From: an uncultured Gammaproteobacteria bacterium
Lineage (GTDB): Bacteria; Patescibacteriota; Microgenomatia; Levybacterales; GWA1-39-11
NCBI GenBank assembly: GCA_964641355.1
Contig: CAZXND010000002.1
Coordinates: 143,112 to 207,111, forward strand
Reading direction: 5' to 3'
Length of the DNA stretch: 64,000 nt
The translations under genes and the position numbers were made by a program. The notes beneath the pieces were generated by a model that ran no database searches, had not been told where the DNA came from, and saw nothing but the letters and a program-made list of their open reading frames with translations. Shown piece by piece: positions 8,624 through 58,145 of the stretch. Position 1 is the stretch's first letter. Each line of letters starts with the position of its first letter.

Positions 8624-10294
8624 TTAGATCCTTCGATCCCAACTTTTAACAGTTGATAAAATGGTGAGGCCCAAGACCAGAAAAAAAGAAAGAAGGGTAA
8701 TGATTGTTGCAAAACTTCTAACTTGAGTATTTTTAAAAACAACTATTACACTATTTCTACCCTTAGGAAGGGTAAAAGATATAATTCCTTTTTCATTGTT
8801 AACGCTTTTAGTTTTTCCATCAGAAACATACGACCATCCAGGAAAATAAGATATATTTCCCAAAACTTTTACCTTATTTTTTGAAACAACACTCACAAGG
8901 TACTTCGATCCTAATTGCTTTACACTAGCTATATTACCCAACCCTTCTTCTAAAATAAATTTCTTTTCGGGACGCAAGGACACGGTCTTAAACCATATCG
9001 TGTTGAATAAGTCACCTGGACTATTAGTGCCATCAATAAAATTAGATTTATTTATATAATATGAATCAGTTCTATCATGATAATACGCTGGAACAGTATA
9101 GCCATATGTTAAAATTATTGACAGTAGGACGAATAAGGGAAGTACTAAATATTTTTTGTTTACAGATATTAATCCATTAAAAAATACTGCCCCAGATAAA
9201 AATGCTGAAATAAGCATTTCAATACTTAGAAGCCGCCAGGGAAATTGAAAATATGAAATAAGTGGAAGTCTCCAAAAAATCTTAGAATACGCGGTCATTA
9301 AGAAAAAAGTAAAAAAATATGATACTAGGAAAAAAAGTAATATATAGAAGATATTCGCAGATCTTCTACTATTAGCAACTTTTAACAGAATAAATAATGA
9401 TAACAACACAAAAAAAATATTAATTACTCCCAACTGCAACGACATCTTATTATTAAATGTAGAGCTAACAAAACCGGTGCCCCAAGATGGAAATATAAGC
9501 TCTGCTAATTCAGGAAAATTCGATTCTACACTGTAAAGCTCCAACCCCTTAACTATGTTTTTTTCTGAAAGTGCGGGTATCCAAAAAATGGATGCTATTC
9601 CCAAACCAAAAATAGAAATAATTAATACTTTTTTAATTCCATTTAGCCCCTTATTGTAAACTTTGATTAAAAAGACTGAATATAGTAGATAAAAAATAAA
9701 AAATGCTAGACCTAATATGTTATGTGAAAAAATAACCGCAGCCAGAGACAACGCAGAGACTCCTTGCCAAAAAAATGATTTATTAAAAATGGCCTTAGTG
9801 GATGTATATAATAAGAAAGGTGCAAATGCTAAAGCCCAAACCTCCCCTATTGAACCCCTCACGTATACATCAACAAAATGATAAGGCGTATAAGTATAAA
9901 CCACGGCCGACAAAAAACCTCCCCCTTTTCCCCAAAAACATTTAGACCAAAAATACATAGAAAACCCTCCTATAAAACTAGCCAATATCATTGATAACTT
10001 AAATGAAGAGACAAAACTAAATCCAAGTTGGTGAAGTAAAAGCGCAATATAGTTAGGTAATGGGTAAACAAAGTTAAATAAAGGTATCCCAAAAGTAAAA
10101 TTCAAATCAGGAGCCCATCTTGGATATAAAGATCCAAAGGAAAATTCTCTCCAAAACTCATAGAATCGGATTAAATGATATTCTCCATCATGAGTGGGAG
10201 GAAAACCTGGATGAAAGAGAGAAAGAACCGATGGTAGAAGTACGACAAATAGCAGGATCTGTATTATAAAATCGTTTTTGATTATTTTTTTCAC
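8624..10294 (-). CDS. polytopic membrane protein, family C (HDG...PRW...GYG family, distant YfhO-like), putative GT-C glycosyltransferase
   Basis: 556 aa. N-terminal TM followed by the loop HPGFPPTHDGEYHLIRFYEFWREF...LYPRWAPDLNFTFGIPLFNFVYPLP. C-terminal ISYFPGWSYVSDGK module and a terminal TM helix. Four paralogs in the window. Confidence 0.55.
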   Translation of the reverse strand: MKKIIKNDFIIQILLFVVLLPSVLSLFHPGFPPTHDGEYHLIRFYEFWREFSFGSLYPRWAPDLNFTFGIPLFNFVYPLPNYIALLLHQLGFSFVSSFKLSMILASFIGGFSMYFWSKCFWGKGGGFLSAVVYTYTPYHFVDVYVRGSIGEVWALAFAPFLLYTSTKAIFNKSFFWQGVSALSLAAVIFSHNILGLAFFIFYLLYSVFLIKVYNKGLNGIKKVLIISIFGLGIASIFWIPALSEKNIVKGLELYSVESNFPELAELIFPSWGTGFVSSTFNNKMSLQLGVINIFFVLLSLFILLKVANSRRSANIFYILLFFLVSYFFTFFLMTAYSKIFWRLPLISYFQFPWRLLSIEMLISAFLSGAVFFNGLISVNKKYLVLPLFVLLSIILTYGYTVPAYYHDRTDSYYINKSNFIDGTNSPGDLFNTIWFKTVSLRPEKKFILEEGLGNIASVKQLGSKYLVSVVSKNKVKVLGNISYFPGWSYVSDGKTKSVNNEKGIISFTLPKGRNSVIVVFKNTQVRSFATIITLLSFFLVLGLTILSTVKSWDRRI

Positions 10295-11400
10295 TTAATT
10301 AAATATTTATATTCAAAAATTGCAGTAGCTACCACAGGTAAGACTATTATTAAATACTTAAATAGTGGAGTATATCCAAAATAAGAACCAGTCAACATGT
10401 AAGGAGTGTAACTTAAAAGCATTCCAAGACTTAAAGCCACAGACAAATTAATTAACTTTTTACTATCTATTAAGGGCGTGAAAATCAAAAACCATATTGC
10501 ATACCATGGATATATTTCTTCTCTAAGTACGGAAAGAAAAAAAATTGCTACCATCGCCCAAAAAGAAAGCATATATACTGATCTTTGGTTAACCTTCTCT
10601 TTAACAATATGTTTGTAAATTACATATAAAGCGATTGGTAATAAGACGATTGTTCCATATTTTATTAATATAGAAAAAATTATAAATATTGTAAAAAATA
10701 AGTATCTTTTTTTAAATAAGAAATAATATGAGAGCAAAGCTAAACTCATCATAACTATATCATTATGATTTCCAACAAAGGTTTCAATAACAACTAATGG
10801 GTTAATGGCAAAAAGCGAGGTTTTATAAATCGATTTTGTCATTTCATACAATAGTAATACTGCAAGTAAATAAAAGAGGATAACTAAGAGTTTAAAATTA
10901 ATAAGAATTAGTAAAAAATTTCCAAACCCAAGAATAAAAGGAATTAAAGATAATAATAGCCAAACAGGTCCATATAAAGCTACCTTATTAGTAGCTCTCG
11001 TAAAGAAAAGGTATGGTTCGTTCGTAAATTCAATAGGCATAATTATATACGGATTTTCTTGATAACTAGACACTACTTTAGCTGTCATAATATAGTTAAA
11101 AATATCATACGAAAGCATAGCCGGATATGAAAATAACAAAATAAAAAATGTTATAAAAATTACCAGTAAAAAACTTTTTAAGTTAATTAGATTTTCTTTA
11201 AAAGTAGAAACAAATTTTAAATAGAAGATGTAAAAGAGAATGATCATCCCAAAATAGATAACAGAGACAAGTTCTCTTTTTAGATATAGCCCTGAGTATA
11301 GGAAATTAAAGTAAGATAAATTTGCATCGATAAATATATAACTAAAAAAATTTAGCAAAATCAAAAAAATTACGTACGATATTATCAAATACTTACTCAT
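10291..11400 (-). CDS. polytopic membrane protein, family D (NPY...YGPxW...HNDIVMM), possible DUF2029/GT87-like glycosyltransferase
   Basis: 369 aa. Motifs DIFNYIMTAKV, NPY, YGPVWLL, NPLVVIE, HNDIVMM and IKYG are shared with the proteins at 56976..58145 and (more weakly) 27419..28645. Confidence 0.5.
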   Translation of the reverse strand: MSKYLIISYVIFLILLNFFSYIFIDANLSYFNFLYSGLYLKRELVSVIYFGMIILFYIFYLKFVSTFKENLINLKSFLLVIFITFFILLFSYPAMLSYDIFNYIMTAKVVSSYQENPYIIMPIEFTNEPYLFFTRATNKVALYGPVWLLLSLIPFILGFGNFLLILINFKLLVILFYLLAVLLLYEMTKSIYKTSLFAINPLVVIETFVGNHNDIVMMSLALLSYYFLFKKRYLFFTIFIIFSILIKYGTIVLLPIALYVIYKHIVKEKVNQRSVYMLSFWAMVAIFFLSVLREEIYPWYAIWFLIFTPLIDSKKLINLSVALSLGMLLSYTPYMLTGSYFGYTPLFKYLIIVLPVVATAIFEYKYLIK

Positions 11401-11911
11401 ACTTTTGTCTTAACAGTAAAGATTCACCTACATTTCTTTTTAATTCTAGTTTTTTAACTTCTTTTTTTTCTTCGTTCCAATTAAACTTTTCAGGCAATTC
11501 CTCACTTACTTTAATAAGAGTTTGATAATGTTTTTTTGCAGCTAGTTTTAAAGTATGTTTTTTTTCTTCACTACCATTCTTTCTCACATTTAAGATTTTA
11601 GATGCTTCAATAAAATATACATCTGATTTTCTAAGTGCGTTATAACCAAGTAAATACTGCTTGTATTCAAAAAGTACCTTCGCCTCAACAAGATACTTAT
11701 CTGAAAGCTTAAGATAATAAACGAAATTTCCATAATCACCGAAATACCAAAATTTAGAAATATAGTAATAAAATTGGTTTAGGTTGTAGAATTTACTTCC
11801 TGGAAGAACTGATGGGTATGGAAGCACGTAAGAAGAGTCAGAGTTCGCTAAAACTATTTTTACGTTAAAAAATAAAAGAAAAAAGAAGAACAGTAGATAA
11901 CGCCACATCAA
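11393..11911 (-). CDS. small secreted protein (signal peptide, Tyr-rich N-domain, Lys/Glu-rich C-tail), unknown function
   Basis: N-terminal MMWRYLLFFFFLLFFNVKIVLANS looks like a signal peptide. Tyr-rich stretch YYYISKFWYFGDYGNFVYY. 8-bp overlap with the upstream gene. Confidence 0.45.
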   Translation of the reverse strand: MMWRYLLFFFFLLFFNVKIVLANSDSSYVLPYPSVLPGSKFYNLNQFYYYISKFWYFGDYGNFVYYLKLSDKYLVEAKVLFEYKQYLLGYNALRKSDVYFIEASKILNVRKNGSEEKKHTLKLAAKKHYQTLIKVSEELPEKFNWNEEKKEVKKLELKRNVGESLLLRQKYE

Positions 11912-12879
11912 TAGTTATTTTCACTATGCCATTTCCATGCGCTTTTTACTATCGTTGAAAGATCAGAAAATCTTGGATGGAAATTTAGGTCTTTTTTAAT
12001 ATTTCCCACATCCGCTATTAAGACATCCGCGTCTCCTGGTCTTGGAGGAGAAGTAATAGTTTTTACTTTTTTTCCTGAAACCTTCTCAATTTCAGAAACA
12101 ACTTCCTTATTTGAGTAACCGTTTCCAGTTCCTACATTATAGAAGTACATTCCACCATCACTAACCACCTTATCGAGTGCAAGAAGATGAGCATCGATTA
12201 AGTCAAGAACATGAATATAATCTCTAACACAACTTCCGTCAGAAGTATTATAACTATCCCCATATAATTCGAATTCTTTATCTTTTAAGATCGCGTTAAT
12301 CACATTTGGAATAAGATGAGATTCTGGTTGATGGGATTCTCCATATTTCCCATCGAGCGATGCTCCAGCAGCATTAAAATATCTAAGACTGATAAAATTT
12401 AAATCGAAAATTTCTCCATACCATTTTAAAACCGTTTCTACCATTAATTTACTCTCACCATAGGGATTAGTAGGAAGTTTCGGGTGTTCTTCTTTTATTG
12501 GAGTTTCTTGTGGATTTCCGTAAACCCCAGCTGTTGATGAAAAAATAATATTCCCAACATTTCCCTTGATCATAGCCTCTATTAGGTTAAGTGTGCCATA
12601 TGTATTATTTTCAAAGTATATGTATGGATTTTGCATAGATTCACCCATAGATATTAGTCCAGCAAAATGAATTACACAATCGAATTTATCTCTAAAAACC
12701 TTCTCAAGAAATTTTTTATCAAGAAGATCACCATTTAGAACTTTCACGGATGAATCTAAATCTACCTCCGTACTCCTCGAAAAATTATCTAGAACAGAAA
12801 CCTCATCACCTCTATTTAATAAGCCCCTTACCATAAATCCTCCAATATATCCTGCTCCTCCTGTTACAAGTATTTTCAT
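11908..12879 (-). CDS. galE: UDP-glucose 4-epimerase (GalE-type)
   Basis: MKILVTGGAGYIGGFMVRGLLNRGDEVSVLDNFSRS N-terminus, YGESKLMVE (YxxxK), 323 aa, typical GalE layout. Confidence 0.75.
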   Translation of the reverse strand: MKILVTGGAGYIGGFMVRGLLNRGDEVSVLDNFSRSTEVDLDSSVKVLNGDLLDKKFLEKVFRDKFDCVIHFAGLISMGESMQNPYIYFENNTYGTLNLIEAMIKGNVGNIIFSSTAGVYGNPQETPIKEEHPKLPTNPYGESKLMVETVLKWYGEIFDLNFISLRYFNAAGASLDGKYGESHQPESHLIPNVINAILKDKEFELYGDSYNTSDGSCVRDYIHVLDLIDAHLLALDKVVSDGGMYFYNVGTGNGYSNKEVVSEIEKVSGKKVKTITSPPRPGDADVLIADVGNIKKDLNFHPRFSDLSTIVKSAWKWHSENNY

Positions 12880-13664
12880 ATTTCTATTCTATTCTTATTT
12901 AAAGATATTATATACGATACCGGATATCTAAGTGAAGAAAAGAAAGAAAACACGAATCCTTGCCATGAATCCATGAATCCTTTATGTCTTAAATATGTCA
13001 AAAAAAACCAGTATAATGGCCTTATTAACAAAAACTCAGGAACAGAGTACAATTTCAAAGGAAAAATTCTCTTCCTCATCATTTTCTGTATCTGATGTGC
13101 ATAAATATTATTGTATCTCTCCCATTTTTGCAAATAAACAGAAAAGTTTTTATAGGGATAATGGAGAAGAGGGTGGGATAAATAGCCAACGACACCATCT
13201 ACCACAGCTTGCTCATGAACATCTTTTTGCGGGAGTTTTCCTTTGCCATTTTTATATAAACGGAGTGTATAGTCAGGATATTGACCACCTTTCATAAGGA
13301 ATCTACCAAGGAAAAAGTTTTTTCTCGGAATCCAATATCCACTCTCTTCTCTTACCTCATCATTAATTACTCGAATAATTTCGTCTTTCAGCTCTTTAGA
13401 AACTCTCTCGTCTGCATCAAGCTGCAATATCCAATCAGAGGTAGCTTTATCAATAGCTTTTTGTTTATTGATGTGAAATATCTCTTGATTGGGTAATATA
13501 CTAACTATTGCCCCATAGCTCCTCGCAATTTCTACAGTCTTGTCATTCGATTCTCCATCAACTAAAACTATTTCAGACACCCATCCCTCAACAGAATCGA
13601 GTGTTCTGCCAATACTTGCCTCTTCGTTGTATGTTGCTAAAACAACACTTATTGTTTTCTTCAA
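12876..13664 (-). CDS. family 2 glycosyltransferase (paralog of 43497..44399 and 37881..38615)
   Basis: ISVVLATYNEE...VLVDGESNDKT...QLDADE. C-terminal block QYPDYTLRLYKNGKGKLPQKDVHE is shared with 43497..44399 (WYPDYQLRLFKNGSGKFPEKHVHE). Confidence 0.7.
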   Translation of the reverse strand: MKKTISVVLATYNEEASIGRTLDSVEGWVSEIVLVDGESNDKTVEIARSYGAIVSILPNQEIFHINKQKAIDKATSDWILQLDADERVSKELKDEIIRVINDEVREESGYWIPRKNFFLGRFLMKGGQYPDYTLRLYKNGKGKLPQKDVHEQAVVDGVVGYLSHPLLHYPYKNFSVYLQKWERYNNIYAHQIQKMMRKRIFPLKLYSVPEFLLIRPLYWFFLTYLRHKGFMDSWQGFVFSFFSSLRYPVSYIISLNKNRIEI

Positions 13665-15319
13665 GGCTTAACCTCTCCTATTATTATAGCTTGTTTGTTT
13701 GTAGGAAATTCAACACTTTTAACAAGAACTAAAGGACTTTTAAATTCAGACGGGTTTAAAACATAAAGAACCTCTTTTTCGAATTTTATCGGTTTTTCAA
13801 AATAATATTTTCCAATTTTATGTGTTTCTGCAAATCCACCTGACCTTGTTCCTCCTGACATTTGATAGTTCATTGGATCTACTTTTCTTGAAAATAAATA
13901 AAACATATAACTCTCTAGTAGGCTTTCTCTGTTAGAAACTACAATTTTATTGTATTTATCTTCATTTTTTTTAGCAAAGGCAATCGCCTGCAACAGTCCA
14001 TATTGAAACTGATGAGCAGAATTATTTCTAAAAATATTAAAATAACTGTATGAAAAAAATAGAACATATGAACAAATTACCAATGCGAAAACCCCTATAA
14101 TCAGATTTCTTATTAACATGCTCATTTTTAACAAATAAGAAACAGCTACGATTATTCCATATGATTCAACTATTTGAGGCAAAGGTAAAATCTGAATTAC
14201 CCTCATGGCATGAGGATAACCGTTTGTTATAGCCCCAGGAACCAACGATGAAAGCAACCAGAACAAAAAGAAAAGTTTTATTTTATTATCGAAATCTTTT
14301 CTTGTTATCAAAAAAAATGCACCAAAGAGAATTATCACTAATTCAAATGGATAAAACAATCCAAAGTTTGGAACTTTAAAGATCTCATCTCCGGTATTTG
14401 TAAATAACCAGAATGGGTTAAAATGTGACATATACGCTGAGAAGATTAGACCTCCATACATAACCCTCCTGTTGTACATCACTTGGCCAAAAAAATCATT
14501 TTTACTTTTCGCCTCTAAAACCTTAACGGCACTATTACTTAAAAGCTGAGGATTTGAAGATAATATATTTGTACCTGAAAATCTAATAAGCGCTCCTGGT
14601 TTTAATGTTTCAACAATCACTGGCAACACTATAATTAATCCCAAAAAAATGCTTAAGGTTAAATTTTTTTTATTTCTGGTTAAAGACTTAATAAATATTG
14701 ACGCAATAATAAGCGAAATAAGAGGGATAAAGATTTTTCCACTTTGATAAGAATCGAAAGAAAGAGCCATAAAAGCAGCAGAAAGTGGTAAAAATATAAT
14801 TGACCCTCTCTTTGACCCTAAAATAAATTTGAAAAAAAATGTAAGACCTAGAATAAAAAAAGAGAGAAATGCATTTACTTCGTGTCCTAACCTAGAAATA
14901 TAAATATGCCAAGGGGAAATCGCCAACAAGAACATTACTAAAAACGGTAGAGCTGAGATAAAACGTAACGATAACTTTGAAATAAAACAATCAACGAGAA
15001 AGTAAACAGAAATTACACTTATTATCGATAAAATTACCGACGGTAGTCTTACGGCTAAAGCACTTAAACCTAAAAACTTAACGAATGGAATAACTAAGTA
15101 GACATATAAGGCAGGTCTATAATCATCATACGCCCTTAGCAACACTGGAAAAGAACTAAGATACTCATCTTTCCCTGTTAATAATATTGAATATGCATTG
15201 TAACCAATCGAAACCTCATCAAGGCTTGGATGTGACGGAATATTGCCCAATTCATAAAATCTAAAAAAAATTGCAATCGAGAGGATTGTTAAAAAAATAA
15301 TTTTTTTCACTTTTTCCAC
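13661..15319 (-). CDS. GT-C family A (PMT_2/ArnT-like, GT39/GT83-type) membrane glycosyltransferase, paralog 1
   Basis: 552 aa polytopic. Loop-1 motif LDEVSIGYNAYSILLTGKDEY, later ISPWHIYISRLGHE and VPHAMRVIQILP. The same three motifs are conserved in 7 paralogs. Confidence 0.65.
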   Translation of the reverse strand: MEKVKKIIFLTILSIAIFFRFYELGNIPSHPSLDEVSIGYNAYSILLTGKDEYLSSFPVLLRAYDDYRPALYVYLVIPFVKFLGLSALAVRLPSVILSIISVISVYFLVDCFISKLSLRFISALPFLVMFLLAISPWHIYISRLGHEVNAFLSFFILGLTFFFKFILGSKRGSIIFLPLSAAFMALSFDSYQSGKIFIPLISLIIASIFIKSLTRNKKNLTLSIFLGLIIVLPVIVETLKPGALIRFSGTNILSSNPQLLSNSAVKVLEAKSKNDFFGQVMYNRRVMYGGLIFSAYMSHFNPFWLFTNTGDEIFKVPNFGLFYPFELVIILFGAFFLITRKDFDNKIKLFFLFWLLSSLVPGAITNGYPHAMRVIQILPLPQIVESYGIIVAVSYLLKMSMLIRNLIIGVFALVICSYVLFFSYSYFNIFRNNSAHQFQYGLLQAIAFAKKNEDKYNKIVVSNRESLLESYMFYLFSRKVDPMNYQMSGGTRSGGFAETHKIGKYYFEKPIKFEKEVLYVLNPSEFKSPLVLVKSVEFPTNKQAIIIGEVKP

Positions 15320-16590
15320 CTCTTTTCATAAATATAATGAATATAAGATTCAGGCGCTCCATAAAGGAAATCATTTTTAATACCTCTATTTACCTCTATC
15401 CTCACTTCCTTCCTATATTCAGACAAACCCTTTGTTTTGTAGGAAAAAAAAGCCGAAATATTTATCGCTAAAAAGTAACTAATAACCAAAATAAAAATAA
15501 CTTTTGGCAAGATGTTTTTTAACCTCCATAGCTTCATTAAAAAATAAGACAATACAAATATAGCTATAAACCTAGTACTTGAAAAGAAGTAATTAGAAAT
15601 ATCTCCCTTATAAGTTGCGATTACCACCCAAGGGACTACAAACCAAAGCACAACTAAAAAAACAAAAATTAATCTATCTCTATTAAATTTTTCTCTAAGA
15701 TATGTTAGCGAGAAAAACGGAACCACCAATATTGAAACAATCTGAGGTATATTAAAACGAGTTAAACCTGAAAATTCAATAAATGCATCACCCGATAATT
15801 GAATCATCCTTCTTAAGTGTAATCCGTGATAATTACTGGATAAAAAAGAAAAAACATTGACACCACTTTTAGAATTAAGTGATGAAATTATATTTGGAAT
15901 TAAAAAAACAAAAAAAATGGGAATTGCTAATAGTATATATTTAAGCGTTTTAACTTTAAATGGAATAAGTGGTAAACAGAATAATAATATTACAAAATAA
16001 AAAACAGATGTAGTATGGATATGCAGAGAAACTCCAAGTAAAACAGCTAAAACCAAAATCTTACTTACATCTCCAAGTAATATTCTATATATAAAATAAA
16101 AGATTAGTAATGATATCGATGCAATAAATCCGACTGGCCATTGTGTTCGTTCAAAGCTTATATTGTAAAACGATATACTTTGAATTAATAAAGCAGTTAA
16201 AGCTACTTTAGAATCGAATAACTTTTTCGTTATAGAGAATAAAACAAGAAGCGAGAACAATGCCGTTACTAGTGCTGCGATTGGAGACGCAATTGGGTCT
16301 AAATTTGTAACCAGATAGAAAAAGGCAATGAAGTAATAATATAGAGGTCCAATAAATATTCCCGTTCCCTGCCTAGCTTGCATACCAACAAGAGGGTATT
16401 CTTTATTAACTAAAATATTCTTTGACACCCATGCATTATCAACTTGATCCCATCCAAAAGAGTGATTTGATTCAAATTTATACACACGAAAGAAAATAAA
16501 CACAAGAAGTATTGTCAAAAAAACAATTAACTCTTTTTTACTATTAAAATTTATACCAAAAAATTTAAAAATCTTGTTAATCTTTTTCAT
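15307..16590 (-). CDS. polytopic membrane protein, ArnT/GT83-like candidate
   Basis: 427 aa. TM1, then FGWDQVDNAWVSKNILVNKEYPLVGMQARQGTGIFIGPLYYY loop, about 11 TM helices. Confidence 0.45.
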   Translation of the reverse strand: MKKINKIFKFFGINFNSKKELIVFLTILLVFIFFRVYKFESNHSFGWDQVDNAWVSKNILVNKEYPLVGMQARQGTGIFIGPLYYYFIAFFYLVTNLDPIASPIAALVTALFSLLVLFSITKKLFDSKVALTALLIQSISFYNISFERTQWPVGFIASISLLIFYFIYRILLGDVSKILVLAVLLGVSLHIHTTSVFYFVILLFCLPLIPFKVKTLKYILLAIPIFFVFLIPNIISSLNSKSGVNVFSFLSSNYHGLHLRRMIQLSGDAFIEFSGLTRFNIPQIVSILVVPFFSLTYLREKFNRDRLIFVFLVVLWFVVPWVVIATYKGDISNYFFSSTRFIAIFVLSYFLMKLWRLKNILPKVIFILVISYFLAINISAFFSYKTKGLSEYRKEVRIEVNRGIKNDFLYGAPESYIHYIYEKRWKK

Positions 16591-16615
16591 TAATATTTAA
16601 TATATGTGAGCTATC

Positions 16616-19911: not shown

Positions 19912-19953
19912 TTATGTTAATATCCGATATAATTGAATTATAGTTAAATCCTC

Positions 19954-25086: not shown

Positions 25087-25095
25087 CTATAAAGA

Positions 25096-26769: not shown

Positions 26770-26792
26770 TTTATAAAACCTAAGAAAGTATA

Positions 26793-27398: not shown

Positions 27399-27418
27399 AA
27401 AGTAACGGGCAGATAAAG

Positions 27419-28645: not shown

Positions 28646-28651
28646 TTAAAT

Positions 28652-37595: not shown

Positions 37596-37652
37596 ACGTT
37601 TATTTTAACAACTATTGAATAGCAATAAAAGTTATGTTAAATTCAATAAGTT

Positions 37653-37877: not shown

Positions 37878-37880
37878 TAT

Positions 37881-38615: not shown

Positions 38616-38622
38616 AATTTAA

Positions 38623-43491: not shown

Positions 43492-43496
43492 TTAAA

Positions 43497-45850: not shown

Positions 45851-45876
45851 GAATATCCAACGCTTAGTGTGTACCT

Positions 45877-49846: not shown

Positions 49847-51509
49847 TATCCGTAACTGGATATTCAAAAATCTTCTCTTTATCAGAGATGACAACAGGTC
49901 TTTGTGGAAAATCAAATGTAGCAAGAGTGTTAATCTCACGAGGTTTGTTTTCTTGATTCGTTACAATGAGTACTCCCTTTTTAAGGTCTTTTGTCCAATC
50001 AATATCCTTAAACTCATATTTTCCGAATGATTTTATCTCAGAAAAACCTTCAGAATCATCAGAAGCTCTTACAGAGGCGGTTTGAAAATTTTTTGGATCG
50101 TATTTATTGTAAAAGAGTAATGAGCTATAAATGAATCCTGATTTCTTGTCAAAAATTATTTTTTCATAACTGCTTTGATTGTTTTTTATAAACTCAGAAA
50201 GATTTTTATCTTCTTCCCTCCAGGCCTTTGCGTAAGCTATTGGAAATCTTACATAATAGGAAGTGAAATAATAAATTAAATTGTAAGTAAATATTAAAGA
50301 AATAACGACAATAGAAATTTTTCCCAAAAGTTTCAGATTAAGGAGATAATTCCAAATCGAAAGAATCCCTGCAGCCGAAAATATAGCAAGCGGAATAACT
50401 AGAAAAAAACTTCTAGTTGCATGTGGAGTCTCACGAGTTAACGCTGCGACTAAAACCACCAACACCGCCCATGATATAAGTAACTTTATCCATTTTGCTT
50501 TTACTTTGATAAGATGAATAATTCCCCAAGGTATAAACAAAAACTCAATTAAATAGAACTGACCCACATTTCCAATACCGTGATTACCATGATTAGATCC
50601 AGAAATAAAGAAAAATTGAGCAGAAAAGTAAGATGCAATATTGTTCAGATACTTCCAAACGATGGAAACATCAATACTAAAAAAAAGTTTTGAAAACCAA
50701 ACAGGATATGTAGCAAGATAACTTTTAAATTCTAATAAAGGCGCTTTTATTGAAGCGCTAGTTGTAATTAATGTTCCAGAAGCAGAATTAACACCTCCAC
50801 CCGAAAAAAAGGTAAAAATAAAAGGTAGAATTAACAAAAAAGAAGAAATAACTGTCACAGTCTTCCATTCTTTAGGAATTTTCGCTATATCATCTTTTTT
50901 ATAAAACAAAAAAATAACTAACAATAAAGGAGAAAGAAGTCTTGTAAGATTGTAGGTATACAAGTTTATTAAAAACAAAATTACTCCTAAAATAAAAAGG
51001 ACAAACTTTTTTTTCTCTATAGAATATAAAAATAACAGCCCACCAAATAGATACAGAAATAAAGCCACACTTACTTCGAACGTCGCCCGGTTATAATGTA
51101 GAGTCCACGGATTAACTGCGAAAAGAAAAGATGATACAAGAGATAAATTTTCATTTTTTGTGAGTTGTTTAACAAAAAAATATAGAATGATTACTGATAA
51201 AAATCCGCAAAAAGCAGAAGGAAATCTTACTGCAAAGGCAGTTATTCCAAATACAGCTTCAGAAAAAACGGTTGCATAGATATAGATTGGATGCTTCCAG
51301 TCTCCAAATGACTTAAAATACAAAGGGGAATTTTTACCATACTCATCCTTTCCAGTTTTAAGAATTGAATAGGCGTTATATCCTATTGCAGTTTCATCTT
51401 GATACAAACCAGTTGGTACTTCTCCAAGCTGATAAAACCGTAGAATAAATGCAAGAAGAATAATTCCAATAAAAATATATTTCCTAAAGTTCATATTTCC
51501 ACAAAACAA
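49818..51509 (-). CDS. GT-C family A (PMT/ArnT-like) paralog 7
   Basis: LYQDETAIGYNAYSILKTGKDEYGK; VNPWTLHYNRATFE; TPHATRSFFLVIP. Confidence 0.65.
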   Translation of the reverse strand: MFCGNMNFRKYIFIGIILLAFILRFYQLGEVPTGLYQDETAIGYNAYSILKTGKDEYGKNSPLYFKSFGDWKHPIYIYATVFSEAVFGITAFAVRFPSAFCGFLSVIILYFFVKQLTKNENLSLVSSFLFAVNPWTLHYNRATFEVSVALFLYLFGGLLFLYSIEKKKFVLFILGVILFLINLYTYNLTRLLSPLLLVIFLFYKKDDIAKIPKEWKTVTVISSFLLILPFIFTFFSGGGVNSASGTLITTSASIKAPLLEFKSYLATYPVWFSKLFFSIDVSIVWKYLNNIASYFSAQFFFISGSNHGNHGIGNVGQFYLIEFLFIPWGIIHLIKVKAKWIKLLISWAVLVVLVAALTRETPHATRSFFLVIPLAIFSAAGILSIWNYLLNLKLLGKISIVVISLIFTYNLIYYFTSYYVRFPIAYAKAWREEDKNLSEFIKNNQSSYEKIIFDKKSGFIYSSLLFYNKYDPKNFQTASVRASDDSEGFSEIKSFGKYEFKDIDWTKDLKKGVLIVTNQENKPREINTLATFDFPQRPVVISDKEKIFEYPVTDNAYVVVESN

Positions 51510-53832
51510 TTGTCGATCCTAAAATAACTATAAACAATGATATTATAGTGATTTTTAATCCTAATTTAAATGAATCAGAACTAAAAACAAACTTTACCGA
51601 ATGATTTCCGGAAGGGATCAAAATTGCTCTGAAAGCATAGTTAGCTTTAAAGATCTTAGTTTCTTGATTGTCGACAAATGCCTTCCAACCTGGATAATAT
51701 GTGTCTGATAAAAAAAGAAGATTATTTGACTTGGATTCAGTTGTAAATAAGATGCCCTCTGACTTATAAGAAACGAGTTTAACTTTTCCAATAGAACCAC
51801 CTAACTCAGATTCTACTCTTTCTTCTAATATTAAACTTAGATTTGGGTTAAATTCTTTCGAAAAGAAGATTTTTTCAAACTCCTCTTTGGATCTTACAAC
51901 CTTATAAGAGTTAGTCAAAAAGAATCTTGGTACAACTTTTAAGTTTTCGAATATTCTCCAATCATTTCTATCATATATTTTATTAAAATCTTTTGTGGGA
52001 AAAGTTTTTTCCGATGTTCCGTTCTGATATCTGTCTAAGATATACCTCACACCTAGCAAGTTCAACACTTTTTGTCTATATTTATTTTCGGCGAAATCGT
52101 TTTCCCCAAATCCTTGGAAAATTCTTGCATCAGACCGGGTTTCATTGTTAAATAGCGAGGGAAATTCCCCATTTTTTGATAATTCTATAAACTCTCCGTA
52201 GTCTTTTGGGTAAAGCGGATCGTAACCATCAGGAGAATACATGAACAGTTGCGTTGCAAAATTAGCTTCTATATTTGCAGTTCCATAACCCCAAAATCTG
52301 TATATATTCGACTTATTTTTTAAAAAGGAAGAGATTTCTGTTGGTGGATATACCAATAGTGAAGGCACAAAAGGATTAAATTTATTAAAAAAATAAAAAA
52401 GATCAAAAATGGTGATAAAAATAAAAAGATATACATAGTATTTTTTAGCAACTATTCTAGACGAGAGTAAAACGAAACCTAACATAAGAGTAAGTATTAG
52501 ATTTGATAATAAAAAGCTCTTCATATTCATTGGAGATTTTGTAATAAATAAAATCCATCCATAAAATATAAGAAAAAAAACTGGAACCGATGCATAAAAA
52601 AAGTTTCTCCGCTTGTTCCAAACACTATCAATTCCAAACGAAGAAAGAGTCGCAAAGGAGAATGATATTAGAAAAATCGCATTTGCCGGTGAGCTTGTAG
52701 ATAATAGGGGAATTGGTATTTTAAAGAATAATTCAGATAATGGGTTTTTGAAAGTAATCAGAAGCAGAAGAGTTAAAGCCAATAAATAAAATCTAACGAT
52801 CTTATCTTTTTTATAACTCACAATACCTAAAATCGAAAAGAAAAAAGGGATAATTCCAAAATATAATGCCGATCCAGGATAAGATTTTGACAAGAGGAAA
52901 TTTTTAGTAACTGGGTTACCAAAGAAATCTGGAGAGAGAAATAAAATTATTTCTTTAGGTTGTAATAATAAAGTATTAACTAAATAATTATAGGGCTGAT
53001 TACTCCTTGCAGAATTCGAAATTAACTCTAACGTCGGGAGAAGTTGTACTCCTCCAACTAATAATGGGAGGATTATTGCGAAAAATATCAATATTATTTT
53101 ACCTGTATTTTTTTTCTTAAAGGAAAGAGAAATAAATAAAAAATAAAAAAATATGAATGAAAATACTAAGAAAAAAACCTGAATATGCCCAGCGAAAAAA
53201 GAAAATAAAAGTGCTAGAAAAACGCCAATAAGGTAAGATAATTTTATTTTTTTAATCAATTTCTCAAGAAAATATAGTACAAGAGGAAGATAAAGAACTG
53301 AATGAAGAATAGTATTGTACTCAAGAAAAACAGTGAAATATAGAGAGAAAGAAAAAGCAATCGATGCAAAAAGCGAAGCTTCTTTACTTCTCTTTATCTC
53401 CCTTAAATACAGATAAGTAAATAAAAGTGCTAGTAACGGCTGCAATAGAACCTGGATAGTCCAAGCTAAGGTTTGAGGCAAAAAGAAATAGAAGATGTTA
53501 AATGGGTAAAAGATAGAGGACTGAAAATTTGCCAATAGTGGAGCTCCCGAAAAGTTATACGGATTCCACAAAGGGATTTGTCCATTTTTAATCGAGTTTA
53601 TTGAATAAGTCTTCCAGGGAAAAATCTGTCTTGCAGTATCAAAATATTGATCTTTTGACGGATATGTTCCAGGATTAAACCCTAAATAGGAATAGGTTTT
53701 CCAAGGATTGTAGGATGAAATAAGTAAATCTCCAGGAAATGGAACAAAGCCAAAGAAAAAAAATTTATGAAAGAATAATACAATTATAAGAACAAAAAAT
53801 GTCTTACTTATAATTAATTCTTTTAATTTCAT
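51484..53832 (-). CDS. YfhO-family membrane glycosyltransferase, paralog 4
   Basis: IPLWNPYNFSGAPLLANFQSSIFYPFNIFYF; LSPDFFGNPVTKNFLL; C-terminal TYYPGWKAFVDNQETKIFKANYAFRAILIPSGNHSV. Confidence 0.7.
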   Translation of the reverse strand: MKLKELIISKTFFVLIIVLFFHKFFFFGFVPFPGDLLISSYNPWKTYSYLGFNPGTYPSKDQYFDTARQIFPWKTYSINSIKNGQIPLWNPYNFSGAPLLANFQSSIFYPFNIFYFFLPQTLAWTIQVLLQPLLALLFTYLYLREIKRSKEASLFASIAFSFSLYFTVFLEYNTILHSVLYLPLVLYFLEKLIKKIKLSYLIGVFLALLFSFFAGHIQVFFLVFSFIFFYFLFISLSFKKKNTGKIILIFFAIILPLLVGGVQLLPTLELISNSARSNQPYNYLVNTLLLQPKEIILFLSPDFFGNPVTKNFLLSKSYPGSALYFGIIPFFFSILGIVSYKKDKIVRFYLLALTLLLLITFKNPLSELFFKIPIPLLSTSSPANAIFLISFSFATLSSFGIDSVWNKRRNFFYASVPVFFLIFYGWILFITKSPMNMKSFLLSNLILTLMLGFVLLSSRIVAKKYYVYLFIFITIFDLFYFFNKFNPFVPSLLVYPPTEISSFLKNKSNIYRFWGYGTANIEANFATQLFMYSPDGYDPLYPKDYGEFIELSKNGEFPSLFNNETRSDARIFQGFGENDFAENKYRQKVLNLLGVRYILDRYQNGTSEKTFPTKDFNKIYDRNDWRIFENLKVVPRFFLTNSYKVVRSKEEFEKIFFSKEFNPNLSLILEERVESELGGSIGKVKLVSYKSEGILFTTESKSNNLLFLSDTYYPGWKAFVDNQETKIFKANYAFRAILIPSGNHSVKFVFSSDSFKLGLKITIISLFIVILGSTIVLWKYEL

Positions 53833-55469
53833 TTAATTGTTTTTTTGAATATAAATAAAGGAATAAATGTTAAAAATGATAAAGTGCTAAGAATATCAGC
53901 TATTAACCTTACTTTGGTTTCGGTAAATTTTACCTCAACAGAATTAATTCCTCGGGGTACAAAAAAAGTTAATTCCCCTCTATGATTTGGGTCTTGAAAT
54001 TGTACCGGTACCTCCTTTTTATTTACAAACACCTTCCATCCAGGAAAATACTCGGTATGATCCACAACCTTTATTCCATTTTTTGATTTAACTACAAAAT
54101 AATGAAGATTAGACTTCTTAACTAAACTAGTAATATTTCCTTTTCCCGAAATAACCTCCACCCTGCTTTTAGGATATGATTTTGCCGGACCTGCCGACCA
54201 TATTACATCAGTCTCACCATAGTAAGTAGTATTTAAAGGAAAATTCCAGTAATATTTTTCACTTATTTTATCCTCTCCCAGCAGAGGTCTAAAATAATAA
54301 CAATTTAAGACAATAACAAACAAAATTAGCAAGTAAAAAATACTTCTTCTATTAAAAATTCTAAATTCTAAATAAGAAATTGCCGAAAGCGATGATGAAA
54401 AAGAAATGACAGAAAGAATCCTCCATGGAAATTGAAATTGTCTTAAAAGAGAGATCTTTTCCCAAAAAAATTTAGAAACTGGCTGCATAAGGAATAATGA
54501 AACAAATGTTAGAAAAAGAGAAAAGTATATGATTTTTTTTATTTTTGTTCCTCTTTTAAAAAGAACTACAATAGAAAGAAGTATACCCAATACATGAAAA
54601 GCTCCTATTTGAACAGGAATTCCTTCAGTTGAAAGAGTAATTTGATTGGTTAAATTGGGAATAAAAAAGTTGAAAAGAGGTGGAAAGTGTGACATATAAA
54701 TGTTTTTCATAAATAAGTCACCATATGTGTATTTATGATCAACAATAGCGGGAATCCAATAATAAGAAGCGAGACATAAACCAAAAAACAAACTAGCAAT
54801 TGCCCAAAATCGATATTTTCCTGAAAGAAAAAATAGATTGAATAAAAGTGAAATCCCAAAAAATAACAAACTTACAGAATTATGAGAAATTATAAGAAAG
54901 TACACTCCACTAGAAATTATCAAAATGTTTAAAAAATTTATTTTTTTCGAAATCCTTACTGAACCGTAAAGAATCAAGGGTAAAAAAACGTATGCATATA
55001 CTTCACCAAAACTTCCACGCATTAAAATCTCAACAAATCTAAATGGAAAAAACTGATAAAAAACACTTACGAGAACTGCCCTTTTATTATCTTGGAAAAA
55101 TTCTTTAGTAAAATAATACATAAAAACACCTGAAAGTATAAATGAGATTCCAAGAGTTAATTTAAAGGAATTAACCAAACCAAATCCTAAAAAAATAAAC
55201 ACAGAAGAAACTAAATATGGAAAATGGTAAATAAAATTAAAGAGAGGAAGACCATATCCATAATTTAAATCACCAGCCCACCTAACTGGTATTTGAAAGT
55301 CTAAAAGAGCCTTATAAAAAGCGGCCATTCTAGGTAGATGTACGAGTCCATCATGCGTATGTGGAAGATTCGAAGTGGAAAAAAAAGATAGTAAAGGAAT
55401 CGTTGATATTAAAACAATAAAAATAAGATCTATATTTTTTTTAATCCAACTATTTTGGAACGACTTCAT
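53829..55469 (-). CDS. polytopic membrane protein family C, paralog 5
   Basis: LPHTHDGLVHLPRMAAFYKALLDFQIPVRWAGDLNYGYGLPLFNFIYHFP; C-terminal EYFPGWKVFVNKKEV...GINSVEVKF plus terminal TM. Confidence 0.55.
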   Translation of the reverse strand: MKSFQNSWIKKNIDLIFIVLISTIPLLSFFSTSNLPHTHDGLVHLPRMAAFYKALLDFQIPVRWAGDLNYGYGLPLFNFIYHFPYLVSSVFIFLGFGLVNSFKLTLGISFILSGVFMYYFTKEFFQDNKRAVLVSVFYQFFPFRFVEILMRGSFGEVYAYVFLPLILYGSVRISKKINFLNILIISSGVYFLIISHNSVSLLFFGISLLFNLFFLSGKYRFWAIASLFFGLCLASYYWIPAIVDHKYTYGDLFMKNIYMSHFPPLFNFFIPNLTNQITLSTEGIPVQIGAFHVLGILLSIVVLFKRGTKIKKIIYFSLFLTFVSLFLMQPVSKFFWEKISLLRQFQFPWRILSVISFSSSLSAISYLEFRIFNRRSIFYLLILFVIVLNCYYFRPLLGEDKISEKYYWNFPLNTTYYGETDVIWSAGPAKSYPKSRVEVISGKGNITSLVKKSNLHYFVVKSKNGIKVVDHTEYFPGWKVFVNKKEVPVQFQDPNHRGELTFFVPRGINSVEVKFTETKVRLIADILSTLSFLTFIPLFIFKKTIK

Positions 55470-56961
55470 AAAGACTCATATAAGAATCTGAAACACCCTT
55501 TCTGTATTTAGCAACTAATTCTAACGGCCAAGAAGTAGGGGGCATTGTTGTTTGATTGAAAATGAAATACACAGGCATTTTTTTGGCCCTATCAACTAAG
55601 TCAATAGGGATTTCTGGTGGAATTGGATATATTCCTCTTTTCTCTACCTTTTTATTATCTCCAAGATATATCTCAACTGCATAAGTAGGAAGAGAGCCGA
55701 AAGTGCCCTCAGAGGCAACATAAATTTTTTCATTCATTGCTTGTTTCTCAAGATATGCGATTATTTCTTTAGTACCACCACCAGCTGGCCAACCATTAAT
55801 ATATTGTTCTAAATCTGCATAAGGAATTGGGGCATAAGAGATATTACTAATTATAAAATAATCTGATTTAAGCATTAGAAAAACAAAAACCAAAATCACC
55901 AAACCCTTTAGATAATACCCTCTTACTCTTATGCATAAATCAAAAAGTCCATATGCAGCAAGAACTAAAAGCGGCATAGTCATAAAGAAAATAAAACGAG
56001 GATAAAGAACTCTTCCAAACAGAGCTAAAGCAAAAAAAGGTGCTGCAAACCAGATAATCATAAGTAATTTTTCGAAAATAAATTTTCTACTGAAAAATGG
56101 CATCAAAACAAGAATGATTCCTGGAATTGTGAAGTAAGTTATAAGCCAATCAAATTGCCCTCTTAAATTTCCTATTAAAAATCTTGTTGGATGCTCTAAC
56201 CACTCACGAAAAGTGTATACAAAAATCGCGTTTTTATCGTTGATTATATGGTAAAAGGGAGACAATCTTAAAATAGAGTAAATAGCATATGCTAAGACTA
56301 CAGACACAGATGATAAAAAGATCCACTTTATTATTTTTTCAACAATATTCTTTTCTTTGAAATTAAAAAGTAGAATCGAAAAAGGTAAAAGGTAAATAAA
56401 GAAAAAAGCGCTTGTTTTAGTAAGAACTCCGAATCCGATAACCATTCCTAAAATAATTGCTAAATCCAATCTAAGTTTTCTTACTAAAAGAATCTCTAAA
56501 TAAAGTGCCCATATCGCACTTGCGGCAACAATTGAGTCGTAAAGAGCCATTCTATCGTAAACAAGGGCAAATGGGAAAATTAGATATAGGAAGCTTGCAA
56601 ACAAACCTATTTTTTTATTATTAAAAAGTTCCGAAGTAAGAAGATAGAGACCTAAAAGACTTACAAAGCCCGATACAACAGAAACCAATCTTCCAGCAAG
56701 TAAAGGATCTGAGATAAATCTCATAAAAATCATGTCCAGCCATACAAAGGAGGGTTGTTTTCCATCTGTTAGAGAGATAAACCTCCATGCGGCATCAAAC
56801 CTTGCAATCTGCGACCACCTTGTATAAATTGCCTCATCTGTAAATAAAGGAAGAGACATTATATTTATCAATCGAAGAATAAAATATACTACGGCAAAAG
56901 ACAATAAAACAAAAAACGAGATTTTGTTTTTTTTCCAAAAAGCAAGAAGATCTGAAGTCAT
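55450..56961 (-). CDS. ArnT/GT83-like polytopic membrane glycosyltransferase candidate
   Basis: 503 aa. TM1, then SLPLFTDEAIYTRWSQIARFDAAWRFISLTDGKQPSFVWL; about 12 TM helices. Confidence 0.5.
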   Translation of the reverse strand: MTSDLLAFWKKNKISFFVLLSFAVVYFILRLINIMSLPLFTDEAIYTRWSQIARFDAAWRFISLTDGKQPSFVWLDMIFMRFISDPLLAGRLVSVVSGFVSLLGLYLLTSELFNNKKIGLFASFLYLIFPFALVYDRMALYDSIVAASAIWALYLEILLVRKLRLDLAIILGMVIGFGVLTKTSAFFFIYLLPFSILLFNFKEKNIVEKIIKWIFLSSVSVVLAYAIYSILRLSPFYHIINDKNAIFVYTFREWLEHPTRFLIGNLRGQFDWLITYFTIPGIILVLMPFFSRKFIFEKLLMIIWFAAPFFALALFGRVLYPRFIFFMTMPLLVLAAYGLFDLCIRVRGYYLKGLVILVFVFLMLKSDYFIISNISYAPIPYADLEQYINGWPAGGGTKEIIAYLEKQAMNEKIYVASEGTFGSLPTYAVEIYLGDNKKVEKRGIYPIPPEIPIDLVDRAKKMPVYFIFNQTTMPPTSWPLELVAKYRKGVSDSYMSLYEVVPK

Positions 56962-56975
56962 ATTTTGATTATATA

Positions 56976-58145
56976 TTATCGCCTGTATTTAACAAACATC
57001 AAACCTATAATTAACAATGAGACAACAACTCCACCAATATTGATACAAGCAAGGTAATACGGAATTGGATCATTCCAGTTTCCGTATCTTAAATATGGAT
57101 AATAATTCAAAAGAGATGAAATAGAAATAACAACAACAGGGATAAATATAAAATACTTTTTAACAAGAAGAGATGCGAAGGGAAGAGAGAAAAGCAAATA
57201 CCATGGCTGGAAATTTGTTCTAATGGTTGCAATAATAATTGTAAATGTCATAAGAATTAAACTAGCATAAATAACTGTTTCGGTTTTTAGCCTATCACCT
57301 AAAAACTTTTTTCTTAAAATAAATACTAGATATATCGGCGCAAGAAAAAAAGTAACGAATTTAACACCACCTGATATTAAGAAAAGGATAAAAGTCTTCA
57401 TCCACTCTTCTCTGATAAGAAAATAAAACGAAGCCATTGCGAAAAACATCATAACTATATCGTTATGAGAAGAAACCAAAGCTTCAATTAGCACAAGAGG
57501 ATTTAGAGCAAAAAAAGCTGCTCCCAATAATGGATTTTTCTCTTTTGTATACTTGAGTATCTTTTCTATAAAATAAACGCTACCCAAATAACAAATTAAT
57601 GATAAAAATTTAAACAGATAAAAGGTAATAAGAAAGATATTAAACCCAGCAAAAGAAATTGGAATTGTCATACCAAGCCAGGTAGGACCATACGGATAAG
57701 TTCTATGAGTCCATCTCATAAAAGAGAGCATTGGATCCAAAGGATAGTCCAACGCCTTCTTGAAGTAAGGATTATCGTGATAATACGTAAATACTTTCGC
57801 ATCGAAAATATAATTAAACAAATCATATGAAAAAGCGTTGTATGAAAAAAATAGAATGGTGGAAATTAGAACAATTATTGTCCAAAAACTTTTTCTACTT
57901 ATTTTTCCCTGATTAACTAAATAAAGAGTCTTTAGAAATAGTATAAAACCAAAAAATAAAATTATCAGATAAATAGCAGACGACAGAGGTCTTTCAAAAT
58001 AACCAACATATTGAAAATATTTTTCTATGGTTTGATAAATAGAAGCCTGAGAGAGGGTAAGAGATAGGTCAACCTGAGTAAACGAGTATAAGGTTAGCAA
58101 GATTGCAAATAGAACCCAAAGAGGAAAAAATAATCGGTTAAGCAT
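56976..58145 (-). CDS. polytopic membrane protein family D (NPY...YGPTW...HNDIVMM), paralog
   Basis: DLFNYIFDAKVFTYYHDNPY...YPYGPTWLGMT...NPLVLIEALVSSHNDIVMMFF...GGVKFVTFFLAP; collinear with 10291..11400. Confidence 0.5.
   Translation of the reverse strand: MLNRLFFPLWVLFAILLTLYSFTQVDLSLTLSQASIYQTIEKYFQYVGYFERPLSSAIYLIILFFGFILFLKTLYLVNQGKISRKSFWTIIVLISTILFFSYNAFSYDLFNYIFDAKVFTYYHDNPYFKKALDYPLDPMLSFMRWTHRTYPYGPTWLGMTIPISFAGFNIFLITFYLFKFLSLICYLGSVYFIEKILKYTKEKNPLLGAAFFALNPLVLIEALVSSHNDIVMMFFAMASFYFLIREEWMKTFILFLISGGVKFVTFFLAPIYLVFILRKKFLGDRLKTETVIYASLILMTFTIIIATIRTNFQPWYLLFSLPFASLLVKKYFIFIPVVVISISSLLNYYPYLRYGNWNDPIPYYLACINIGGVVVSLLIIGLMFVKYRR

Follow-up and report, generated by a model that had tools for sequence, protein, structure and literature searches.

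MptA and MptB of Mycobacterium and Corynebacterium are polyprenyl-phosphomannose-dependent alpha-1,6-mannosyltransferases, and PimE (PDB 9dm5, 9dm7) is a polyprenyl-phosphomannose-dependent alpha-1,2-mannosyltransferase of family GT87. The eukaryotic ER lumenal enzymes ALG3, ALG6, ALG12 and GPI mannosyltransferase I (PIG-M/Gpi14) act on dolichol-linked substrates, and the GtrA/GtrB/GtrV, CsbB/YfhO and ArnC/ArnT systems place a GT2 polyprenyl-phosphate sugar synthase beside a GT-C transferase. Levybacteria are bacteria of the Candidate Phyla Radiation (CPR) with genomes of ~1 Mb. Within a stretch of 64,000 nucleotides from one such genome (the whole stretch that was analysed, hereafter the window), a first-pass annotation had pointed out three ORFs coding for polytopic membrane proteins, and the boundaries of all three were confirmed:

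10291..11400, minus strand: protein A, 369 aa; predicted GT-C membrane glycosyltransferase, Pfam MptA_B_family (PF26314), paralogue of C
27419..28645, minus strand: protein B, 408 aa; predicted GT-C membrane glycosyltransferase, Pfam GT87 (PF09594), remotely related to A and C
56976..58145, minus strand: protein C, 389 aa; predicted GT-C membrane glycosyltransferase, Pfam MptA_B_family (PF26314)

We consider it very likely that all three proteins are polytopic GT-C glycosyltransferases of the inner membrane (A and C MptA/MptB-like paralogues, B GT87/PimE-like), which move a sugar from polyprenyl phosphate onto an acceptor outside the membrane, be it a surface glycan, a lipid or a protein.

Relationship and family assignment of the three proteins

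Proteins A and C share 33% identity over 369 columns (BLASTP, E 1e-46), and their profile-profile comparison gave a probability of 100% (E 4e-70). No BLASTP match was obtained between B and either A or C, while hhalign comparison of the orthologue alignments linked the B group to the C group (95.1%, E 3.1e-8) and to the A group (91.3%, E 9.6e-7). When the A-group and C-group HMMs were run over the window (all 72 ORF segments that extend from stop to stop and reach 90 aa), B was matched with E 6e-9 and 6e-7, and since the next best segment beyond B reached only E > 0.1, the window contains exactly three members of the family. Judged by these alignments, the similarity among the three is far beyond chance, A and C being clear paralogues and B a distant relative visible to profiles only, in line with the first-pass view of one family with B as its more distant member. 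The ordered motifs that had been proposed for all three proteins (searched as the regular expressions D[IL]FNYI[MF][TD]AKV, NPY, YGP[VT]W, NPLV[VL]IE, [HS][NS]D[IM][VF]M[MY] and IK[YFQ]) were found complete in A (six of six, exact) and nearly so in C (five of six, the lysine motif reading VKF instead of IK[YFQ]). That proposal held only in part for B, which contains NPY, SDMFMY (the noted pattern without its opening residue) and IKQ and lacks DxFNYI..AKV, YGPxW and NPLVxIE as written; despite the missing motifs, the Asp, a Pro and NP of B are still aligned and conserved with A and C.

Protein B matched Pfam PF09594 (GT87) with 31.8 bits (gathering score 25, E 1.5e-7) over profile positions 5-223 of 237, and its exact protein also has a precomputed PF09594 annotation. 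Because only some of its orthologues carry a precomputed GT87 annotation, the rest having PF26314 or none, B stands at the edge of the GT87 family. Proteins A and C fall into PF26314, the Pfam family of MptA and MptB: a precomputed match (E ≤ 1e-5) is present for the exact protein of C and, as PF26314.1, for P0122, the 100%-identical cluster representative of A, and PF26314 is found on every A/C homologue among the matches listed (at least 240, and at least 120 for A), a minority of them carrying PF09594.17 alongside. This assignment was taken from precomputed annotations with a cut-off of E ≤ 1e-5, which give no bit score to set against a gathering score; hmmscan of A and C against a Pfam release older than PF26314 returned no match at E ≤ 1, GT87 included. 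The NCBIfam MptA model (TIGR03459) scored 34.2 bits for A (E 1.3e-8) and 45.9 bits for C (equivalog cut-off 439.4), the match covering model positions 44-293 of 470; for C, the MptB model (NF038066) gave a match as well, with 23.7 bits (equivalog cut-off 40). As A and C score far under the equivalog cut-offs, they are not MptA/MptB orthologues, the alpha-1,6-mannosyltransferase activity is not transferable to them and they may use a sugar other than mannose. With 369-389 aa they also differ in length from the two models (470 and 553) and are without the C-terminal part. The first-pass guess of DUF2029/GT87-type lipid-donor-dependent transferases is therefore supported by GT87 for B and by the MptA_B_family and sub-threshold MptA/MptB matches for A and C, at the level of enzyme class and not of a mannosyltransferase, and its suggestion of a further class of transferase falls away, both families being already curated.

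Two other readings were considered in the light of these searches and rejected. Polytopic proteins of ~11-12 helices encoded in a glycan cluster could also be transporters or flippases that carry lipid-linked sugars across the membrane, an outcome that the first-pass annotation had itself named as counting against its proposal; the best Pfam matches were to transferase families and not to transporter or unrelated families, and we hold this reading to be extremely unlikely. A polymerase or ligase of Wzy, O-antigen-ligase or EpsG type, raised earlier as an alternative, would join preassembled undecaprenyl-diphosphate-linked repeats instead of single sugars from a monophosphate donor. B gave a weak EpsG match (E 0.16, 11.6 bits vs a cut-off of 30.1), and two Wzx-like flippase genes, which usually accompany Wzy, lie in the same minus-strand cluster (6216..7535 and 44396..45850), but neither family HMMs nor the fold placed A, B or C among EpsG or Wzy-type proteins, and such a function is very unlikely. 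At E ≤ 1e-3 a merged profile matched 10,542 cluster representatives, and a scan of species-representative genomes with the C-group alignment found the C-type signature at 306 loci. The MptA/B-like and GT87 families are already catalogued and common in Levybacteria, and the three proteins are ordinary members of them. A literature search returned no paper for PF26314 and none relevant on Levybacteria glycosyltransferases.

Fold, membrane topology and candidate active-site residues

The predicted models were confident (pLDDT 86.7 for C and 84.5 for B) and showed a multi-helix fold with structural similarity to solved GT-C enzymes, ALG6 being near the top of the structural neighbours of A and C, while unrelated chains scored no higher than 7.4 against the model of C and 8.1 against that of B. 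MptB is likewise reported to have ALG6 close to the top of its structural neighbours (PMC13223929), and A and C share with MptB, where the residue is D136, the placement of a candidate catalytic Asp behind several N-terminal TM helices. Searches of A, B and C, profiles included, gave no sequence-level match to any solved structure. Identity to ALG3, ALG6, ALG12 and PIG-M was 9-16%, with no sequence-level relationship in the searches run, and structural alignments with PimE gave only 12-13% identity, again with no sequence-level match even with profiles. PimE has one TM helix before the catalytic loop, whereas A, B and C have three.

In all three groups the short loops alternate between Lys/Arg-rich and Lys/Arg-poor, with K+R counts of 18-20 for the rich side and 4-5 for the poor one, and every conserved motif lies on the latter. 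By the positive-inside rule, HND and the other motifs are predicted to be located in extracytoplasmic loops, and the charge bias thus speaks against the cytoplasmic placement that had been put forward as evidence against a transferase. The mapping was based on hydrophobic-core loops, guided by PimE and partly chosen to fit: it treats helix 154-166 of C and helix 143-159 of B as buried and non-spanning, by analogy with JM2 of PimE, and requires A and C to have a membrane-spanning segment behind their QPWY motif. Crude hydropathy segmentation and unguided positive-inside enumeration on DSSP helices were ambiguous because flanking Lys/Arg had been taken into the helix ends.

Among 115 divergent representatives (18-50% identical to C), D108 and K262 of C were present in all 115, H227 in 113, and Y112 and W315 in 112 each, while position 229 was Asp in 103 and Glu in 12. 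The candidate active-site residues of the three proteins are as follows:

57810..57824, minus strand: C Asp108-x3-Tyr112 (SYDLFNY), proposed catalytic base and supporting Tyr; codons verified
57459..57467, minus strand: C His227-Asn228-Asp229 (HND), proposed acceptor- or sugar-binding site, by spacing only
57360..57362, minus strand: C Lys262, proposed donor-phosphate ligand and putative counterpart of PimE K195
11092..11106, minus strand: A Asp99-x3-Tyr103 (SYDIFNY), counterpart of C D108/Y112, with D99 aligned to C D108; invariant in the A-group alignment; codons verified
10759..10767, minus strand: A His212-Asn213-Asp214 (HND), invariant in the A-group alignment; codons verified
10660..10662, minus strand: A Lys247 (IKY), proposed phosphate ligand; invariant; aligned with C K262
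28364..28366, minus strand: B Asp94 (VHDIILQ), proposed catalytic base; invariant among B-group proteins; placed opposite A D99 and C D108 by both hhalign and MAFFT
28007..28009, minus strand: B Asp213 (RSDMFMY), corresponding to the Asp of HND; invariant; aligned with C D229
27908..27910, minus strand: B Lys246 (IKQ), proposed phosphate ligand; invariant; aligned with C K262

In the models, helix 108-120 of C opens at D108, right after TM 84-99, and Asp94 of B immediately precedes helix 95-107. GT-C enzymes carry a conserved acidic catalytic residue in their first extracytoplasmic loop, where the first juxtamembrane helix lies, and C D108, A D99 and B D94 fit this position. K262 of C is located where helix 248-261 breaks off and helix 263-282 begins, the HND motif of C lies in a short K/R-free loop between two TM helices, and the Asp of HND/RSD is separated from the Lys by 33 residues in A, B and C. 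These invariant residues resemble the active site of PimE, in which D58 is positioned at the apex of JM1 and hydrogen-bonded to Y62, with the same D-x3-Y spacing as D108/Y112 of C (PMC12041525), and in which D160 and K195 are 35 residues apart; B differs in having Gln at +4 from the Asp, where PimE has Tyr. The PimE equivalences are positional, drawn from spacing and secondary-structure position and not from a residue-level alignment, and no counterpart of the PimE W319/H321/H322 loop was established in A, B or C.

A role as non-catalytic GT-C-fold scaffold or substrate-binding subunits, comparable to PIG-U/GAB1 of the GPI transamidase and holding a lipid-linked glycan for a neighbouring GT-C enzyme, appears highly improbable. 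For A, B and C as active glycosyltransferases, the analogy with PimE suggests that the invariant Asp (C D108, A D99, B D94) would act as the catalytic base, held in A and C by the Tyr at +4, that the equally invariant Lys (K262 in C, K247 in A and K246 in B) would bind the donor phosphate, and that the HND/RSD loop may help to position the sugar or the acceptor.

Gene neighbourhoods and the putative donor pathway

Each of the three genes is embedded next to GT2/GT-C genes, as had been noted before, and the gene order around A, B and C is conserved in other Levybacteria. The neighbouring genes are:

8624..10294, minus strand: PTPS_related (GT-C-like) membrane protein, Pfam PF10131, E 6e-9; its start overlaps the A stop by 4 nt
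11393..11911, minus strand: small ORF of 172 aa with hydrophobic N-terminus, overlapping the A start by 8 nt; DUF5667, E 1.3e-4, below cut-off
12876..13664, minus strand: GT2 upstream of A, belonging with A to one run of overlapping genes, Pfam Glycos_transf_2, E 2.8e-18
26793..27398, minus strand: SAM-dependent methyltransferase immediately downstream of B, Pfam Methyltransf_23, E 7.7e-14
28652..30295, minus strand: PMT_2-type GT-C immediately upstream of B, Pfam PMT_2, E 3.4e-10; conserved in L007 and L008
32679..33395, minus strand: GT2 of polyprenyl-phosphate type upstream of B, Pfam GT2, E 1.9e-36; candidate donor synthase
55450..56961, minus strand: PMT_2-type GT-C directly downstream of C, Pfam PMT_2, E 1.3e-13; conserved neighbour
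58138..59028, minus strand: GT2 whose own stop overlaps the C start by 8 nt, Pfam Glycos_transf_2, E 1e-28; candidate polyprenyl-phosphate sugar synthase for the C donor

Protein A is flanked by the PTPS_related gene and, on its upstream side, by the small ORF, an epimerase and the GT2. The PTPS_related gene also adjoins the A orthologue at locus L004, where a GT2 occupies the same relative position as 12876..13664, and at locus L005 an ORF 47% identical to the small ORF (E 1e-44) is found directly upstream of the A orthologue; the small ORF is a conserved partner of A. Protein B sits between the PMT_2 gene and the methyltransferase. The order GT2-GT2-PMT_2-B is kept at locus L007, from which the methyltransferase is absent, while the latter is present in L008 and L009. 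For the GT2 upstream of B, the best NCBIfam matches fell below the cut-offs of their models; they were AglJ (E 4.5e-31) and ArnC (E 1e-23). Protein C sits between the GT2 and the PMT_2 gene, an order (GT2-MptA_B-PMT_2) kept at loci L001-L003 and L006, and the best solved relatives of its GT2 are the dolichol-P-mannose synthase 5mlz (E 5.8e-18), ArnC and GtrB.

From this adjacency we infer a pairing of donor synthase and transferase in which a cytoplasmic GT2 encoded nearby (for C, the overlapping GT2) would use a nucleotide sugar to charge polyprenyl phosphate with its sugar, the lipid-linked sugar would then be flipped across the membrane, and on the outside the GT-C enzyme would pass it on to a surface glycan under construction, a glycolipid or a protein. 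Use of a lipid-phosphate-linked donor on the non-cytoplasmic face is predicted from the GT2 type, the invariant Lys and the orientation. The logic would be that of the GtrA/GtrB/GtrV, CsbB/YfhO and ArnC/ArnT systems; unlike in these, the GT-C partner belongs to the MptA_B/GT87 branch and not to YfhO, ArnT or GtrV, and no GtrA-type small flippase was identified.

The wider glycosylation cluster

The three genes are part of a minus-strand cluster of ~59 kb that is almost wholly devoted to surface glycosylation and makes up roughly 5% of the ~1.1 Mb genome. It contains ~23 GT-C genes, YfhO and PMT_2 genes among those present, and 10 GT2 genes. Among the products of the window are sugar epimerases/dehydratases and an aminotransferase, with no recognisable GDP-mannose pathway. 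The cluster is unusually large and more notable than the three genes, which on their own change little, being uncharacterised members of two curated GT-C families. To our knowledge, no PIM, LM or LAM acceptors are known from Levybacteria-type CPR bacteria. A speculative and in our view unlikely extension is that minimal MptA/B-like and GT87-like enzymes, together with the ~20 further GT-C paralogues of this conserved cluster, might build a lipid-anchored surface lipoglycan in Levybacteria, analogous to actinobacterial lipomannan/lipoarabinomannan, with A, B and C each adding a distinct linkage. If true, the CPR would possess in this lipoglycan an envelope polymer that has so far escaped notice and is possibly important for attachment to host cells. 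For the family, the analysis allows 'hypothetical proteins' of Levybacteria to be named as GT-C glycosyltransferases, with residues proposed for mutagenesis. For the organism, the size of the cluster points to an elaborate extracytoplasmic glycan as a central element in the biology of bacteria that are reduced and probably depend on a host.

Kinship and conserved residues of the three membrane proteins

The three ORFs that the first-pass annotation had grouped as a family of polytopic membrane proteins are all present exactly where it had placed them:

10291..11400, minus strand: protein A, ORF of 369 aa
27419..28645, minus strand: protein B, ORF of 408 aa
56976..58145, minus strand: protein C, ORF of 389 aa

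A and C, 33% identical over their whole length (BLASTP, E = 1e-46), are by sequence unmistakable paralogues; B gave no BLASTP match to either. Orthologues were gathered separately for A, B and C, 23 per group were aligned, and profile-profile comparisons tied the B group to both of the others, at 95% probability for C (E = 3e-8) and 91% for A (E = 1e-6). Group-specific HMMs for A and C were searched against every ORF segment of 90 aa or more in the window (72 in all); they matched each other and then B (E = 6e-7 and 6e-9), and no fourth member was found among these segments, the next match being no better than E = 0.1. The profile comparison and the HMM scan thus bear out a three-member family with B as its outlier. 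The ordered motifs proposed for it (NPY, YGPxW and HNDxVMM among them) held in part: all are exact in A, C departs only in having VKF where IK[YFQ] was proposed, and B carries only NPY, SDMFMY and IKQ. In a joint alignment of the three groups (37 sequences), D108, N125-P126-Y127, Y152, P154, P216, D229, M232, K262, P270, W315 and P350 (C numbering) were common to all.

Residue conservation (C numbering) among 115 full-length cluster representatives, only 18–50% identical to C
D108: kept in 115/115
P126: kept in 115/115
P216: kept in 115/115
K262: kept in 115/115
H227: kept in 113/115
Y112: kept in 112/115
W315: kept in 112/115
Position 229: D in 103/115, E in 12/115

Family assignment, predicted fold and proposed active site

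The suggestion that the family is of the GT87/PimE class gained support: B passes Pfam PF09594 (GT87) with 31.8 bits (gathering score 25), and a precomputed match to PF26314 (MptA_B_family) is found on C itself and on every homologue listed for A and C. A and C had no match in our local Pfam copy, which predates PF26314. A and C also match the NCBIfam models of MptA and MptB, two mannosyltransferases of mycobacteria, significantly, yet miss the equivalog thresholds by a wide margin; because of this, and because no GDP-mannose pathway is evident within the window, the name 'mannosyltransferase' is not transferable to A, B and C. At 369–389 aa, against model lengths of 470–553, A and C are short and divergent for the MptA_B family, and B is a peripheral member of GT87. 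The family search returned 10,542 cluster representatives (E ≤ 1e-3), and C-type loci in species-representative genomes numbered 306; since the superfamily is very large and its families are already catalogued, A, B and C are further members of known families. In some relatives of 542–997 aa (representatives P0397, P0422, P0494, P0497 and P0503) the GT-C module is only a part or is matched in several stretches, hinting at fusion or tandem duplication events in other parts of the family.

Because no solved structure was detectable for A, B or C by sequence searches, profiles included, structures were predicted for C (pLDDT 86.7, pTM 0.89) and B (pLDDT 84.5, pTM 0.86). The B model has the same structural neighbours as C, with higher scores (23.8, 22.2 and 22.0; PimE, 17.0), and Foldseek placed the same enzymes on top, with weak E-values. 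Transporters were at noise level among the structural matches, and the transporter reading is rejected on the fold. It is also very improbable that the three proteins are Wzy/ligase-type polymerases, as the one match in that direction, to EpsG, is at noise level only and no Wzy/ligase-type structure is among the fold neighbours shown.

In PimE, the first juxtamembrane helix has the catalytic base, Asp58, at its apex within the first periplasmic loop, hydrogen-bonded to Tyr62; the TM3–TM4 loop holds Asp160, the donor phosphate is salt-bridged by Lys195, and a second juxtamembrane helix is membrane-buried and non-spanning (PMC12041525). In the C model, D108 opens a helix (108–120) right behind a TM helix, with Y112 at +4; the counterparts are D99 and Y103 in A and D94 and Q98 in B. 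The spacing from the HND/RSD Asp to the invariant Lys is 33 residues in A, B and C alike, compared with 35 between Asp160 and Lys195 of PimE, and three TM helices, rather than the one of PimE, precede the catalytic loop. The single-residue equivalences with PimE are putative, drawn from position and spacing only. Invariant residues of catalytic type disfavour the reading of A, B and C as non-catalytic GT-C-fold subunits like PIG-U, to which we give very little credence.

In a PimE-guided topology mapping that took the hydrophobic helix at 154–166 of C (143–159 of B) to be the buried juxtamembrane one, the short loops of all three groups were by turns rich and poor in Lys/Arg (K+R sum 18–20 on one side versus 4–5 on the other). 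All conserved motifs fell on the poor side, outside, and not on the cytoplasmic face, which the first-pass annotation had named as counting against its proposal. Since the mapping is PimE-guided and an unguided count was ambiguous, an extracytoplasmic location of the motifs is well supported but not proven.

Neighbouring genes and proposed mechanism

A GT2 gene (58138..59028) overlaps the C start codon by 8 nt, and its nearest solved structures are dolichol-phosphate mannose synthase, ArnC and GtrB, all of which make polyprenyl-phosphate sugars. The orders GT2–C–PMT_2 and GT2 ... small ORF–A–PTPS_related are kept in other genomes, and GT4–YfhO–GT2–GT2–PMT_2–B in another genome. The best-supported explanation, and in our judgement a very probable one, is that A, B and C act by the standard GT-C scheme, in which a cytoplasmic GT2 would make a polyprenyl-phosphate sugar, the lipid-linked sugar would be flipped across the membrane, and each of the three would pass it, at the outer face, to an acceptor (glycan, lipid or protein), with the invariant Asp as base and the invariant Lys holding the donor phosphate.

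The small ORF (11393..11911, 172 aa), which overlaps the A start codon by 8 nt, has a hydrophobic N-terminus and a weak, sub-threshold DUF5667 match, and may be a partner of A that is secreted or anchored in the membrane; an ORF 47% identical to it lies directly upstream of an A orthologue in another genome (L005:13-543). Directly downstream of B, as in loci L008 and L009, lies a SAM-dependent methyltransferase gene (26793..27398); the glycan that B and its neighbours build might be the substrate of this enzyme, and the gene is absent from the L007 genome.

The glycosylation cluster and its hosts

The window (31% GC) carries 46 of its 48 ORFs of at least 150 aa on the minus strand, where a glycosylation super-cluster spans 355..59028 almost unbroken. 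It encodes about 23 GT-C-type membrane proteins (about 11 PMT_2-like, 5 PTPS_related, 4 YfhO, and A, B and C), further glycosyltransferases (10 GT2, 3 GT4), 2 Wzx-like flippases, 3 sugar epimerases/dehydratases and 1 DegT aminotransferase. Five ORFs of 542–573 aa lack a Pfam match (E ≤ 1e-3):

13661..15319
21744..23372
23365..25086
25096..26814
53829..55469

In an all-against-all phmmer comparison, three of these joined PMT_2-like paralogues, one joined PTPS_related paralogues and 23365..25086 was a singleton; all five are probably further divergent GT-C enzymes. The sole plus-strand GT-C gene inside the long minus-strand run is a PMT_2 gene (19954..21747, 597 aa), and the related locus L007 has a similarly inverted one (10533..12305, there on the minus strand). 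Between the cluster end and lon lies a tRNA gene:

60202..60276, plus strand: tRNA-Glu (anticodon CTC)
60288..62684: lon protease gene

Named homologues of A, B and C belong to Candidatus Levybacteria/Patescibacteria, including one complete Levybacteria chromosome of 1.14 Mb. Many species-representative MAGs with a Levybacteria-type C gene are titled 'uncultured Gammaproteobacteria bacterium' (L013, L017–L022 and others), and single records go under Pacearchaeota, Eisenbacteria or Saccharimonadales. As taxonomic labels, such titles look generic or mistaken. Other Levybacteria contigs share large parts of the gene order of the cluster, and, in a Levybacteria genome of some 1.1 Mb, the cluster would occupy ~5% of the chromosome. 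The scale and conservation of such a GT-C cluster in a ~1-Mb genome are more noteworthy than A, B and C themselves.
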